Shown: piece by piece, positions 46,377 through 51,721 of the stretch | Position numbering within the stretch: the first letter of the stretch is position 1 | Layout: every line of letters starts with the position of its first letter | Assembly (NCBI GenBank): GCA_963756875.1 | Contig: CAVWPA010000003.1 | Coordinates: 1,216,001 to 1,280,000, forward strand | Source: an uncultured Verrucomicrobiae bacterium | Lineage (GTDB): Bacteria > Verrucomicrobiota > Verrucomicrobiia > Chthoniobacterales > UBA10450 | Reading direction: 5' to 3' | DNA: 64,000 nt | Notes under the pieces: model-generated | What the model was told of the DNA's origin: nothing | Database searches by the model: none | Seen by the model: the letters and a program-made list of their open reading frames with translations, nothing else | Position numbers and translations under genes: made by a program

Positions 46377-46474
46377 TCGCGGTGGCCATTATCAATCCCA
46401 AAGCCAACCTTACCCTCTGCCCGGCGCAGCCTTTGGCGAAGGCGAGACCTCCGATCGCTGATCTTCGTGGCGAT

Positions 46475-46546
46475 CGTTCCCGGGGAGAATCGAACTCCCA
46501 TTTAAGGTTTAGGAAACCTCCGTTCTATCCGTTGAACTACGGGGAC
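46475..46546 (-). tRNA. tRNA-Arg(CCT), hybrid gene at the element junction
   Basis: Minus strand GTCCCCGTAGTTCAACGGATAGAACG-GAGGT-TTCCTAA-ACCTT-AAAT-GGGAGTTCGATTCTCCC-CGGGAAC-G; C3.A70 mismatch. Confidence 0.93.
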
Positions 46547-46565
46547 AAATGGCGATTTTTCTTGG

Positions 46566-46589
46566 TTGTGTCACCCGTTTGTGTCACCC
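46566..46589 (+). repeat. Tandem TTGTGTCACCC x2, candidate integrase arm sites (left)
   Basis: Identical 11-mers at 46566 and 46579. Confidence 0.8.
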
Positions 46590-46599
46590 TGGCTTTCCG

Positions 46600-47725
46600 A
46601 TGGCCAAAAAGGCGGCGAGTCATAACGGGAAAAACGGTTCAAGAAGGTCGGGCCGAATCTATATCGAGATGCAGCCGGTCGTTATTATCTGCTCGTCAAA
46701 AAGAGCGGCAAGCAGTTTCGCCGGAGCCTAAAGACGAAGGACCCTGCGCTAGCGAAACGGCGATTGCGGGAATTTCAGGACCGGGCGGGCCGACTAAATA
46801 CGGATGGAACCAATAGTTCGATCCGATTTGATGACTTCGCAGAGATGGCTCGCAGCCAAGACGGCTGAACTTAAAGCATCCTCAGCGTATCGACGTGCAA
46901 GCGTACTTAAAGCAACTCGGCCGTTTTTCAACGGCCGTTTGGTGCGAGCGATCGGCGCGAAGGAGATCGAAGCATGGAAGATTAAACGTGGAGCAACGAT
47001 TTCCGCTCGCAGTTGGAATATCGAAGTCGAGACGCTGAAACAAATTTTCGCGTACGCAAAGGACACGTTGCGAATTATCCTGGATAATCCTGCACGATTG
47101 TTGAAGCGAAAGAAAGAACCGAAAGCGGGAATTGTTATTCCGTCGAAAGAACAATTCCGCGCTTTGGTGAATGAGCTGCGGACCGGCCATCGGCAACTGG
47201 AGAAGCGGCGGATTCGTGGAATTCCTGGCATACTCGGGATGTCGGCAAGGCAAGCGAAACACGTCCGGTGGCGCGATATCAAACGAACTTGGGACGTTGC
47301 TAATTACAGGCGGCGAAACTGGAACAAAGAATTATGAGGCGCGAACGATTCCATTATTCGCTCCTCTTGCGTCGACTTGTTGGAGTCAATGAGGACGCGA
47401 AAAACGATTGGACACTGATGACGCATGAATTTTCCAGATTGGAGATGCACGGCTTCAAATCATCCGAGCATGTGAACGTCTCGGATTGCCTCGCTTTGGT
47501 CATCATACAATGCGCCATTTTTTTTGTTCGAACGCAATCGAAGCGGGATGTGATTTCAAGGTTATTGCCGGTTGGCTTGGACATAAAGACGGGGGAGTGC
47601 TGGTCGCGATGACATACGGTCACCTTCGAAGCGAACACAGTGCTGCGATGGCGAAGCGAATTACCTTCGACGCCGTATCAGACGAACCTGACACCGATCG
47701 TTCGATCATTCCTCTGCCCGTATGA
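46600..47725 (+). pseudogene. Tyrosine recombinase/integrase with several frameshifts
   Basis: Pieces in successive frames: KVGPNLYR..YYLLVK..QFRRSLKT (arm-binding), FLAYSGCRQG (R), GTKN (K), HTMRHFF (HxxR), WLGHKDGG...TYGH (H, Y). Confidence 0.88.
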
Positions 47726-48563
47726 GTGAAGGCAGGGAGTTGATGGAGTGGATTCGCGGCAAGTGGTATGAGCCGATCATCCGACGCGTTGAGACGTTCG
47801 AGGACGAATCGGAGGTTTTTCAGGAAGTCGAGTCGGTAACTCGAGACCTGACTCTGCGGAATGGGCTTTCGAATGCGTTATAAGGGGAGTGCGTCCATTT
47901 GGCGAAGCTAGCGGGGATTCCCTTTAGCGGCACCTTCGGCGCGAAGGAAGTGGGGGCCATTAATTGGTTCAAAGACTGCGATCTGTAAAGCGATGGCGGA
48001 AATCATAGGGTGACTCAAAGCTGGACGCCCGCAGATTGGGAGAAGTTCGTAGATGCTTGGGAGAAAGGAGGTCGATTGAATACGCGCAAAGGACGTGGAA
48101 GAGGTTCGCCGACAAATTGCATCCGGAGTTTGAGGCAATTCGGAAGTTCGCCGTGACTGAGGCGGCTAAGCAAAGCTATCTCGAAGACCTTCAATTCATC
48201 ACTGGGTTGCAAAAGGGAATGACGCTCATGGTTGAGCTGCGGAAGACAATACGTAAAGCCGTAACGAAGAGCTGGAATTCGACACCCAGAAACGGATGGC
48301 GGTTTATCTGTTTGCGATGTGCGAATGGGAGGCTATCGAAGCGAGGACGTGGGGAGTTTAGTTGGCCGGAACTGTCGGAAGCCTTCTCTGAGGCTTTCGA
48401 TCATCGGATCGAAATCGACGAAGACGCGTTCAAGAAGATACTGCAACGGTGCGGCCTTGGCGTGGGCAAAGCCTGGGCGGAAGATTCCTCTGAGGTAGTA
48501 AATCGGGACAGCGGACCGGCGTCCATGTCCTTAGTGCGCCTGCAAAGATGGGCGCATGAATGA
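47722..48563 (+). pseudogene. Hypothetical element protein, frameshifted
   Basis: ATGA overlap with the integrase stop; coding-like pieces continue across frames up to the HTH gene. Confidence 0.45.
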
Positions 48564-48763
48564 ACAGACAAAACTAATACAAACTCCGAAGTTCGCGCTT
48601 AATCGCGTGGAAGCGGCGGAGGCGCTAAGCGTAAGTCCGGCGACATTAGATCGCTTGGCGAATCGAGGTCTGATCCTGCCGTGTCGAGCGACAGGGCGGC
48701 CTCGTATCGATCAAGGAGATCGAAAGGTTCCTCAGCTCAACAACGCTCTTGGGCGAACTGTGA
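48556..48763 (+). CDS. Excisionase-like HTH protein (frameshift near 48700)
   Basis: LNRVEAAEALSVSPATLDRLANRGLI; natural ending SIKEIERFL..GEL-TGA is in another frame. Confidence 0.75.
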
Positions 48764-49746
48764 GCGCGGAACAGGGGCCAGTTGGAAGGCGGGAGAGCTC
48801 GGATGCCGCCGCGTCAGCGGCGGCGCCGAGCCTTCCTTGTCTTAAGAAGGATAACTGCATCGTTAATGGCAGATATCGAGCTGTCTTTGTGGCACAGGAA
48901 AACATTCGTCTCTACATCTGGAAGTTCGGAGAGCAGAACGTTGGGTCATTGACTGTTACAGCTGCGGACTGCTTGGAGTCTTCAGAGTTTCAAGAAAAAT
49001 GGCATTCGTATCTGAATCCGTTGAAAAAACTGTTTCCAACGGGCATGTGGACACGGGAGCGGCAGCCGCGAAGCGGTAACTGGCACGCGCACGCGATTGT
49101 AAATGTCGGATGGGATATCAAGACGAATTTTCCGCGGGACCAGGTTGAGCGGCGGTTCTATGCGAACGTCAATCCGCGGTTGAGGGAATTGTGGAAGGAT
49201 CTGCGAAAGACCGCGCTATCACATGGCCTCGGTCGCGTGGAGTTGTTACCGTTGAAATACGGCGGCGATGCTTGCGCTCGTTATTTTACCAAATACCTAA
49301 CAAAAGCTCTCGGTTCGGAAAAAGCGGTTGGAGAAGAGAAGTGCAGGCTTTTCAGTGTTTGGGGCGGCGTTCGGTTTGTTCATTCGCGGTTCAGCTTTCT
49401 TTCGTCGCGCATTATTCAAAAGCGAAAGCAATGGCTCACCGAGCAGTTGGGATATTCTGATACATCGGAGTTAAAAAAGCTTTCGCAGCATTGGTGGTTT
49501 CATTACGGCAAGGCTTTGTGCGACGTGATTATGCCGGAGGATTTTTACAAAGTTGGACCGCCGGGCAATCGCCAGTTTGATGATGTGGGGTTGCGTGCCT
49601 GGGAGCGCGATTGGGCGGCTTGGCCCGGAGAACCTTCAGCGGACGTGGTGACGCGATCACAATTCAACTTGTTCTATGATATTGGTTTGCGTCTGTTCGG
49701 CCGGAAATCCAGGCAGGCTTTGCAATTACGCGATGTATTTCTTTGA
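48760..49746 (+). CDS. HUH-superfamily rolling-circle replication initiator
   Basis: Motif I LTVT, motif II ERQPRSGNWHAHAIV, motif III YFTKYLTK; GTGA overlap with the HTH stop. Confidence 0.8.
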   Translation: MSAEQGPVGRRESSDAAASAAAPSLPCLKKDNCIVNGRYRAVFVAQENIRLYIWKFGEQNVGSLTVTAADCLESSEFQEKWHSYLNPLKKLFPTGMWTRERQPRSGNWHAHAIVNVGWDIKTNFPRDQVERRFYANVNPRLRELWKDLRKTALSHGLGRVELLPLKYGGDACARYFTKYLTKALGSEKAVGEEKCRLFSVWGGVRFVHSRFSFLSSRIIQKRKQWLTEQLGYSDTSELKKLSQHWWFHYGKALCDVIMPEDFYKVGPPGNRQFDDVGLRAWERDWAAWPGEPSADVVTRSQFNLFYDIGLRLFGRKSRQALQLRDVFL

Positions 49747-49837
49747 GAAGCGGTAGCCCGGCAAATGAATGAGGCGCATGTTATAGAGCGTGAGGTCAAC
49801 GCATCTGAACAGCTGTTCCCGCCTAGATTTTTTGGCT

Positions 49838-49872
49838 ACACCTTCTTTGGGCGATGCCAAAAAGGTGTTTTT
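49838..49872 (+). terminator. Terminator after rep
   Basis: ACACCTTCTTTGG...CCAAAAAGGTGT stem followed by TTTT. Confidence 0.6.
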
Positions 49873-49895
49873 ATTACGGCTCGCTTACGCTTTTT

Positions 49896-50093
49896 TTAAA
49901 GTTCTAGCACTTTCTTAGCTTTCGCTACATCAGCGTCTGAGCCTTCAATCACCAATGTTGAGTCGCGGTTGATCGCGATTTTTAGATTGCTTAATCCAGC
50001 GCCGGTGAGCTGAGAGCGAATTTGTTCTTCCAACTGTTCGTACATTGCCCGCTCAAAATCGCCGGAGTTAAAATCCATTGAGAACGTAATCAT
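49896..50093 (-). CDS. Small hypothetical protein (65 aa), element cargo
   Basis: Clean ORF 8 nt downstream of the 157 aa gene; mixed alpha/beta-looking sequence. Confidence 0.55.
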   Translation of the reverse strand: MITFSMDFNSGDFERAMYEQLEEQIRSQLTGAGLSNLKIAINRDSTLVIEGSDADVAKAKKVLEL

Positions 50094-50101
50094 GGACAGG
50101 A

Positions 50102-50575
50102 TTACCTTTTCTTCGCTTCCCGCACAAGTTCCCGCACAGCCGGAAGACGCGGAACCTTTCCAGTGGATTCAAGTATCTTTTCCACCTTCCGACGAACTTT
50201 GTCTCGCTTGCGCTCATCGGGAATCGACAAAATTTCCTCGGCATGCGAATCGGGTATGCGATCTAGGCGTTCTCCTTTGGTATAGTACTTGGCAAAACTA
50301 CGCGCGTTGTCGCAACTCTTACGACTCGCCAAGCCTTTCAAGGCTAGGGTGCTGACCAGTCCGTTGAGCAATCTAGATTTTCCAAATTTCTTTTCGTATT
50401 CAATCAGCAGATCCCCTAGGCGGCTTCGGGTGTGGTCTTTTGCGCGACAGAACTCACATACAGCTTCGATAAAGTCGCCCTCCGAAATCGACTGATCGTG
50501 GAGCTGAATGAAGGTGTTCGCTACAATAAACTTGGACCACAGTATGTTTTTGACTGGCGGGTTGTTGTTTTTCAT
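50102..50575 (-). CDS. Hypothetical DNA-binding protein, weakly LmbU/ParB-HTH-like
   Basis: RLGDLLIEYEKKFG...NARSFAKYY...R...SHAEEI...VRELVRE pattern; basic. Confidence 0.6.
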   Translation of the reverse strand: MKNNNPPVKNILWSKFIVANTFIQLHDQSISEGDFIEAVCEFCRAKDHTRSRLGDLLIEYEKKFGKSRLLNGLVSTLALKGLASRKSCDNARSFAKYYTKGERLDRIPDSHAEEILSIPDERKRDKVRRKVEKILESTGKVPRLPAVRELVREAKKR

Positions 50576-50663
50576 TTCCCGGTAACGGTATCCCGTTGAC
50601 GGGGAAACGTCAAGTGGGCTTTCGGGATTCGGTTACATATCACAAATTCTTTGCGCCGTAGTT

Positions 50664-50686
50664 TTGTGTCACCCTTTGTGTCACCC
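50664..50686 (+). repeat. Tandem TTGTGTCACCC x2, candidate integrase arm sites (right)
   Basis: Identical 11-mers at 50664 and 50676. Confidence 0.8.
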
Positions 50687-50813
50687 GGTGGGAAAAAACA
50701 GCCGATTCCTGATTATTGCTGAGGACGCTGATCGGTTTGTAAGTGTCAAGCGAGTGCGGGCTTGCGTATGCATGATGATGCCTAACGAATCCTGCAAAAA
50801 CGGCCGTTTCGCC

Positions 50814-50851
50814 TTAGGAAACCTCCGTTCTATCCGTTGAACTACGGGAAC
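50814..50851 (-). repeat. Displaced 5' half of tRNA-Arg (att site)
   Basis: Minus strand GTTCCCGTAGTTCAACGGATAGAACGGAGGTTTCCTAA; identity ends exactly at the anticodon loop. Confidence 0.92.
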
Positions 50852-50997
50852 TGTTCCAGTTATCGGTTATCAGTTATCAGATATCGGAGGTCGGATTTCA
50901 AATTCGGATTGCGGATTCGCAATTGTCGATCTTAGCAGCGCAGGAAACAATCCGCGAAATCCGTGTAATCCGCGGTTAAGCTTCTGATCTCTGAACT

Positions 50998-51721
50998 ATG
51001 CGCGTTTTCGTAATTACCGGCGCGGGCGTTTCCGCTGAAAGCGGGATCCCGACTTTTCGCGGCAAGGACGGTTACTGGCGGAATCTCGATCCGATGACAA
51101 CTGGCAACGCCGGAAGCGTTTGCGCGCGATCCGCAACTAGTCTGGGAATGGTACAGCGAACGCCGCGACAAAATTCGCGCGGCGAAACCGAATGCCGCGC
51201 ATCAGGCGATCGTGAGATTATCGACTCTCGCGCGCGAGTTCCTGCTTTTGACGCAGAACGTTGATGATCTGCACGCGCGCGCTGGGTTCGAAGGCAAAAA
51301 GATTCCGAAAGAACAGATCGTGCAGATTCATGGCGATATTTTTGTCACTCGATGTTCGCGATGTGAATTGGAGAGGGAGGATCATGATCATGATCATGAG
51401 CAAGATCATGAGGGGGTGCCGACGTGCTCCGAGTGCGGAGGGGTGATGAGGCCGGGAGTGGTTTGGTTTGGCGAGCAATTGGATCCTAAAAAGATTGGGA
51501 GGGTGGAAACTTATCTGGGCCGGGGTCCATGTGATCTGGTGATGGTCATCGGCACGACGGCGCTTTTTGGTTACATTGTCGATTGGGCGATGCGGGCGCG
51601 CGGGAAACATGGCGAGCTCATTGAAGTAAATCCGAGCGAGACACCGATATCGTCGTTCGCGACGCGACTGGTGCGCGAACCTGCGGCAGTGGCGTTGCCG
51701 CGTATCGTTTCCGAATTGTAG
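50998..51721 (+). CDS. cobB: NAD-dependent deacylase, sirtuin (frameshift near 51100)
   Basis: [36 protein letters not shown]...[20 protein letters not shown]. Confidence 0.9.

Follow-up and report, generated by a model that had tools for sequence, protein, structure and literature searches.

The stretch of uncultured Verrucomicrobiae DNA analysed here (contig CAVWPA010000003.1, 64,000 nucleotides; hereafter the window) contains a 4,305-bp element that is integrated in the gene for tRNA-Arg(CCT). Comparison with related loci makes it likely that this element, in reversed orientation, supplies the tRNA gene's 5′ half and probably transcribes the rebuilt gene as well, from an antisense promoter lying in codons 28-37 of its own tyrosine integrase gene (int). 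The integration step, taken alone, is close to certain. The features involved are listed below in window coordinates.

46475..46546, minus strand: rebuilt hybrid tRNA-Arg(CCT), 5′ half from the element and 3′ half from the host, with C3·A70 and no encoded CCA
46509..46546, minus strand: element-borne core copy, tRNA positions 1-38, GTCCCCG allele (from the direct repeat)
46567..46588, plus strand: two arm-type repeats TGTGTCACC on the integrase side (starts 46567 and 46580), position conserved across the clade; putative arm sites of the integrase (Int)
46600..47725, plus strand: tyrosine integrase pseudogene, head-to-head with the tRNA, with at least seven frameshifting indels
46684..46711, minus strand: predicted sigma-70-type promoter TTGCCG-16-GATAAT in int codons 28-37, directed toward the tRNA (promoter matrix and synonymous conservation)
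50665..50685, plus strand: two arm-type repeats TGTGTCACC on the far side (starts 50665 and 50677), ~130-150 nt from the core, spacing conserved
50814..50851, minus strand: displaced native 5′ half, GTTCCCG allele (from the direct repeat and allele comparison)
50873..50923, minus strand: candidates for the native promoter, next to the displaced half: TTGAAA-17-GATAAC (9.0 bits) and TTGCGA-16-TGAAAT (10.4 bits)

Replacement of the 5′ half of tRNA-Arg(CCT)

The direct repeat bounding the element (46509-46546 and 50814-50851) is 38 nt long, with a spacing of 4,305 and a single mismatch, and a genome-wide blastn search with it returned this pair at E 5e-10 and no third copy. It corresponds to positions 1-38 of tRNA-Arg(CCT) and ends on the last base of the anticodon loop TTCCTAA, as the original prediction had described. 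The complete gene (46475-46546, minus strand) is called by ARAGORN, scores 61.4 bits with Rfam, and is the only tRNA-Arg(CCT) among the 39 tRNAs of an assembly that is 87.6% complete; tRNA-Arg(ACG) and several other isotypes are not in this assembly and are probably unassembled. The integrase-side arm repeats, which the original prediction placed 20-43 nt upstream of the tRNA, lie 21-42 nt upstream of it. The Rfam scan detected nothing besides tRNA, and the displaced half together with its arm matches no structured RNA; a structured RNA or pseudo-tRNA made of these parts was rejected on that ground.

The layout was examined in 120 integrase homologues, filtered for an alignment start at or before residue 45, a length of at least 250 aa and at least 200 nt of upstream sequence. 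Part of this set consists of 60 of 150 matches listed, where fragments, most contig-edge matches and unpublished genomes were skipped; the relatives' counts include 1-3 sequences from the unpublished genomes G007, G179 and G267, of which the conclusions are independent. (G000 denotes the genome of the window, other G numbers the family genomes compared with it, and L numbers the fetched loci.) The integrase faces the 5′ end of a tRNA in 111 homologues, follows a tRNA in the same direction in six, and has no tRNA in three. Collapsing at 90% identity leaves 103 sequences: 87 head-to-head with a gap of at most 110 nt, nine with a longer gap, four in the same direction and three without tRNA. The 87 short-gap integrases cover 20 anticodon types and diverge down to about 31% identity, and the long-gap group forms one clade (clade statements rest on a quick tree, and no order of events is claimed). 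The closest homologues belong to records titled Chthoniobacterales, Spartobacteria or Verrucomicrobiota, and matches spanning the int start, arm and tRNA occur in 12 of 300 family genomes besides G000.

Identity between the two copies ends at the end of the anticodon loop in the window and in nearly all relatives listed, and in intact homologues the core ends 53 nt before the int start. Among 16 distant short-gap members, a displaced 5′ piece is present in nine within the fetched sequence (up to 20 kb), and eight of these end at or near the loop end. Because relatives show the same layout, replacement of the 5′ half with a crossover at the anticodon loop appears well supported, and with it the earlier proposal that the native half and its upstream region were pushed 4.3 kb away. 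Several counts weigh against this replacement. No displaced half was found in the other seven distant members, in nine further loci with 3-11 kb of room, or in any of the four long-gap loci tested, so that 5′ replacement was not seen in that clade. The empty site that the original prediction expected, an intact GTTCCCG tRNA next to the sirtuin gene, was likewise not seen among the matches listed in the 300 family genomes, of which G000 is the sole representative of its genus; the closest sirtuin-tRNA spacing among these matches is ~11.6 kb, in G011, and the downstream permease is syntenic in G006.

The acceptor strands of the complete gene, GTCCCCG and CGGGAAC, give C3·A70, and the displaced copy GTTCCCG carries T3 and pairs fully with CGGGAAC (A70), both as first described. 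GTCCCCG/CGGGGAC and GTTCCCG/CGGGAAC are each native in relatives with the matching 3′ strand, and GTCCCCG is the commonest allele beside the integrase-side arm. The C3 allele was probably brought in by the element from a host with GTCCCCG/CGGGGAC. Of the 37 distinct Arg-CCT genes that abut an arm, 15 share their locus with a displaced half (many of the rest lie on short contigs), and in seven of these 15 loci the nearest displaced half differs from the element's half, some being stacked older halves. A true acceptor mismatch is found in two of the 37 (the window gene and L149, both C3·A70) and in one of 37 other complete Arg-CCT genes; ten of the arm-abutted genes have only G·U pairs in the acceptor stem. 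The mismatch on which the original prediction laid weight is therefore real but incidental, being no commoner in element-abutted genes than in others, and its interpretation as a designed feature was rejected on the same counts. By this comparison C3·A70 is a minor by-product that arises now and then when an element comes from a host carrying the other allele. Arginine identity depends mainly on A20, C35, U36 and G73; because all four are intact in the hybrid tRNA, its charging is probably kept.

An assembly error or a later point mutation could also account for the C/T difference, in which case no allele swap took place. Such an origin is very improbable: the element and the neighbouring sirtuin gene do carry indels, and G087 and G066 have the same gene with C3·G70, but the displaced T3 and the A70 of the gene are mutually compensatory and match the native allele of G011, G034 and G017, L149 shows the same hybrid independently, and only two of 76 host genes tested show a frame change.

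Other loci show variants of the arrangement. A second integrase subclade (L034, L084; ~35% identical, with other arm repeats) also targets tRNA-Arg(CCT) from a head-to-head position, and the embedded promoter-like site recurs in it. At tRNA-Arg(TCT), an element of this family is present in L050, a record titled Spartobacteria bacterium LR76. Stacked 5′ halves in L043, L147, L148, L289 and L300 mark repeated integration at one tRNA, and orphan 5′ halves with far arms, inverted and near a tRNA (L027:9172, minus strand; L028:544, plus strand), suggest rearrangement after integration. Short copies of the tRNA 3′ end lie ~120 nt downstream of the gene in L044, L056, L140, L144, L145, L147, L156 and L158.

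A candidate promoter inside the integrase gene

A promoter matrix was trained on the upstream regions (75 nt each) of the other 39 tRNA/tmRNA genes in the genome and resembles cTTGC(C/G)-16/17-(T/C/G)A(T/A)AAT. With this matrix, CTTGCCG-16-GATAAT (46712-46684, minus strand) scores 15.0 bits, a value reached by 1 of 128,000 window positions, and its predicted −10 element ends 137 nt before the tRNA. In 34 of 35 close members, the corresponding site outscores every other antisense site in int. No promoter-like site is present in the 53-nt gap or the arm sites (−1.4 bits), and a promoter located in this gap or built from the arm repeats, whose GTGACA resembles a −35 element, was rejected at that score.

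A proximal site of at least 9 bits precedes none of 38 arm-abutted genes (median −1.3), whereas 12 of 34 displaced halves and 12 of 37 other complete genes have one (medians 7.4 and 6.6, respectively); the totals of 38 and 37 arm-abutted genes reflect slightly different arm patterns in the promoter and allele counts. Because displaced halves keep proximal sites and arm-abutted genes have none, the native promoter, as predicted by the matrix, stays with the displaced half, and since it stays there, expression of the rebuilt tRNA most likely depends on the element. The dependence claimed in the original prediction stands in this form, but the candidate promoter lies inside int, not in the arm region upstream of the tRNA.

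The embedded site follows the head-to-head arrangement. It reaches at least 10 bits in 79 of the 87 short-gap integrases and in none of the 16 others, and the long-gap group, which does not have it, shows a proximal site of at least 9 bits in five of nine members versus three of 79. Among complete Arg-CCT genes with 1.3 kb of upstream sequence, a distal site of at least 13.5 bits accompanies all 34 with an int N-terminus and one of 33 without int. Two remnants retain the site: L092, where only int codons 7-60 are detected, and L185, where the arms and the start codon are deleted. In the Thr/Gln subclade the promoter-like site is shifted by 8 nt.

Codon usage points to the same positions. Among 31 close members, which share 71% nucleotide identity on average, the 12-codon window with the strongest synonymous conservation is codons 29-40. 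It holds three of the six fully invariant synonymous codons, and none of 2,000 permutations, which ignore relatedness, reaches its score. Across the 87 short-gap integrases, the first and second most invariant of 108 columns are G36, encoded by GGC in 72 of 77 against a background of 43%, and Y29, encoded by TAT in 69 of 79 against a background of 40%. The third position of G36 gives −33G and Y29 gives −11A, whereas the split is 44:41 at Y28, the source of the free −8 base. Among the remaining 16 integrases, G36 is GGC in two of 12 and position 29 ends in T in three of 16. On this pattern, selection acts on the DNA of these codons, beyond the protein.

Other results weigh against a promoter at this position. 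The matrix is small, in-house and seeded from the sigma-70 consensus, and within the genome it was trained on it detects a proximal site of at least 9 bits for just 20 of 40 genes. The 10-bit cut-off was set after the scores had been seen (L218 scores 9.6), eight of the 87 short-gap members fall below it, and the comparison set of 16 is small, with 11 forming one clade. L103, whose int lacks codons 1-56, has no strong distal or proximal site, and a hairpin overlaps the −35 element in 16 of 22 close members. A generic promoter scanner lists the site among three found where 3.0 are expected by chance, which alone is no evidence.

In the integrase-less remnants L023, L024, L025, L027, L029, L031 and L095, a displaced half with a far arm lies 1.5-12 kb upstream, but the DNA upstream of the complete tRNA resembles that of the host; L024 carries an exact duplication of 45 nt of upstream sequence together with the half. 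This suggests that a promoter may be regained when int is lost.

Mechanism, alternative readings and known systems

In the mechanism that we propose, attP would bring the tRNA 5′ half and Int would recombine within the 7-nt anticodon loop. RNA polymerase would then start near 46677 and run antisense, crossing int codons 1-26 with the start codon and then both arm sites before it reaches the tRNA; a leader of ~130 nt would be trimmed by RNase P, and an enzyme would add CCA. Any damping of int by antisense RNA would be secondary. The predicted precursor does not fold better than shuffled sequences (z −1.3), and its minimum-free-energy structure is not a cloverleaf.

The integrase itself appears to be broken. 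Its fragments match PF00589 (E 1.2e-5) and PF22022 (E 0.003), both under the Pfam gathering cut-off, and are 66-83% identical to the intact homologue P0001, which matches the integrase family phrog_1 at E 1e-54. The frameshifting indels recur in alignments to most of 12 relatives, and no recurring one falls inside the candidate promoter. Because frame changes are so rare in the host genes tested, the decay is probably real, a locally poor assembly being the alternative. As the integrase is broken and no other close homologue was found in the assembly, the hybrid gene and its putative promoter are probably locked in.

Two other readings of the conserved codons were weighed. The antisense promoter could be real and serve mainly to repress int by antisense RNA, with the tRNA a passenger or partly dispensable. 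The predicted leader does cover the int start and both arm sites, and the tRNA could be spared to some extent: tRNA-Arg(UCU) can wobble-read AGG, G000 encodes tRNA-Arg(TCT), and AGG makes up 4.7% of its Arg codons. We nevertheless judge this unlikely, given that the site is preserved in front of tRNAs that a cell normally cannot do without (Arg-TCT, Thr-TGT, Asn-GTT, Met-CAT, Ser-GCT and Val-TAC), is absent from all four non-redundant same-direction integrases, which would be equally in need of repression, and survives in L185, where the int start codon is gone.

Somewhat less probable still is that the codons form a protein-binding site or a terminator, and that the tRNA is made by read-through transcription starting at the displaced native promoter or elsewhere in the element. 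Its terminator variant was rejected: a terminator-like hairpin is listed at 46723-46706 (minus strand), but it is stable in only 24 of 87 members. A binding site would have to explain why the invariant bases fall exactly on −33G and −11A and persist across subclades with differing arm repeats, and why the promoter-like site of the Thr/Gln subclade has moved. Read-through could draw on other minus-strand sites (10.8 bits at 49569, 9-10 bits for the native ones), yet it would have 4-16 kb to cross, against int and rep. The synonymous conservation of int codons 67-74 and 107-118 also speaks for a role of the codons other than as a promoter.

The 5′-replacing layout, as distinct from the candidate promoter, is a catalogued minority class and not new. 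The comparisons that follow draw on the accessible portions of the papers cited. Islander (PMC4383910) gives 159 of 3,919 islands with a 5′ fragment, and the element resembles this class in its tyrosine integrase, its anticodon-loop site, the same-orientation 5′ fragment upstream and a tRNA rebuilt by the element. The window has a tRNA gene (tDNA) with such a fragment, a length within the 2-200 kb range, a tyrosine integrase (frameshifted) in the interval and a crossover that, judged from the sequence, falls at the anticodon loop (site A). Relatives carry both alleles in intact genes, and an empty attB in the same context was not seen among the matches listed. The class is a 4% minority there, whereas here it is the rule for a family spanning 20 anticodon types, and the accessible Islander text does not describe transcription of such rebuilt tRNAs.

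According to the part of a review that we could access (PMC8371274), a bacterial tRNA, once rebuilt, is still read from its original promoter in all but very few cases, and archaeal pTN3-like integrases have a tRNA 5′ half as attB, with the integrase's own promoter driving the rebuilt tRNA. Our locus shares this attB and, by prediction, expression from an element promoter, but int lies outside the core and is encoded on the strand opposite to the tRNA, with the candidate promoter running antisense inside the int coding sequence. In SSV-type integrases attP lies inside int (PMC7253208); here the core precedes the int start, and the tRNA and int occupy opposite strands. The dusA-associated integrases (PMC4482086) offer a further likeness, in that the element replaces the 5′ end of its target, leaves the old 5′ end at the far boundary and supplies putative −35/−10 elements. 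Their target is a protein gene (the dusA/dusB 5′ end) and here a tRNA gene, and in the accessible text their promoter lies upstream of dusA and is not described inside int.

In Klebsiella, islands located at the arg2 5′ end (bioRxiv 10.1101/2020.11.02.365908) likewise involve an integrase clade inserting upstream of tRNA-Arg, but their repeat ends at the D-loop, and the accessible portion describes no replacement promoter. In tRNA-dependent lysogeny (PMC10865867) the host's tRNA supply likewise comes to rely on the integrated element. In that system the core measures ~10 bp and no tRNA is rebuilt, complementation coming from a separate tRNA of the phage, whereas our element has a 38-nt core and one complete tRNA, with none inside the element. 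The literature search, with Williams 2002 and Zhao & Williams 2002 outside its reach, found no int-embedded antisense tRNA promoter.

Islands whose target tRNA is turned around raise the question of where transcription comes from once the native promoter has been displaced. A 'reversed target orientation' of tRNA islands is reportedly a notion of Zhao and Williams, from 2002 (as cited in PMC6563490 and PMC1635311). The locus offers an answer that can be tested base by base, in that two synonymous int positions would encode the −35 G and the −10 A; encoded at synonymous positions, the promoter could be removed without changing the protein. We lean, by a modest measure, toward viewing these parts as a portable 'tRNA front-end module' of a phylum-wide Verrucomicrobiota tyrosine-integrase family, in which attP gives the 5′ half and two fixed int codons encode the opposite-strand promoter. 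Such a module would allow switching among at least 20 anticodon types, tie the supply of host tRNA to antisense transcription across the start of int and the arm sites, make the 5′ end of int hard to delete, and let dead elements stay as permanent tRNA promoters. It would represent dual coding in a recombinase gene and a route for a dead element to become indispensable, and mobile elements could in this way set both the sequence and the expression of tRNAs in abundant, mostly uncultured bacteria.

Remaining genes and flanks of the element

Other features of the element are as follows.

46801..46825, plus strand: synonymously conserved imperfect inverted repeat in int codons 67-74 (synonymous-conservation scan)
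48036..48563, plus strand: conserved open reading frame (ORF) between int and xis, no assigned family (tblastn matches in L042, L044 and L046)
48556..49746, plus strand: excisionase-like helix-turn-helix (HTH; first ~49 aa) fused to a Rep protein, REP_ORF2-G2P-like (Pfam/PHROG)
49813..49869, plus strand: 57 nt of non-coding sequence following rep, conserved across many element loci (82-97% identity); candidate rolling-circle origin
50102..50575, minus strand: cargo ORF of 157 aa, no family

The ORF at 48036..48563 has no Pfam or PHROG match, and the cargo ORF has neither these nor a homologue in the fetched loci. In the fused ORF, HTH_17 (E 0.004) and PF23343 (E 1.9e-5) both fall below the cut-off, and phrog_66 matches at E 0.004; the two parts sit in different frames in relatives and are fused in this assembly. 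The comparison with rolling-circle integrative plasmids relies on this Rep match, which is below cut-off, and on the 57-nt site, which has no Rfam match and in L040, L027, L140, L150, L157 and L043 occurs at times twice per element or outside the element. Screening the five element ORFs against PHROG gave nothing beyond the integrase and excisionase, with no virion structural or morphogenesis genes, and viral contigs yielded no relative of the integrase; a prophage, including an inovirus, was rejected on these results.

Within int, one half of the inverted repeat at 46801-46825 resembles a tRNA D-arm, which makes it a possible operator or leader hairpin, and codons 107-118 (~46915-46950) form another synonymously conserved block. 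A plus-strand promoter-like site, TTGAAC-16-GATTTT (46531-46560, 9.9 bits), lies directly before the arm sites with its −35 within the antisense of the tRNA D-arm; it is a candidate int promoter under arm-site autoregulation. On the host side, the sirtuin (SIR2) gene at 50998-51721 (plus strand) is split by a +1 frameshift near 51097, either an error or a pseudogene. A 17-nt inverted repeat on the flanks (46446-46462 and 50876-50892) would bracket the tRNA in an empty site, and its upstream copy belongs to a repeat present elsewhere in the genome.

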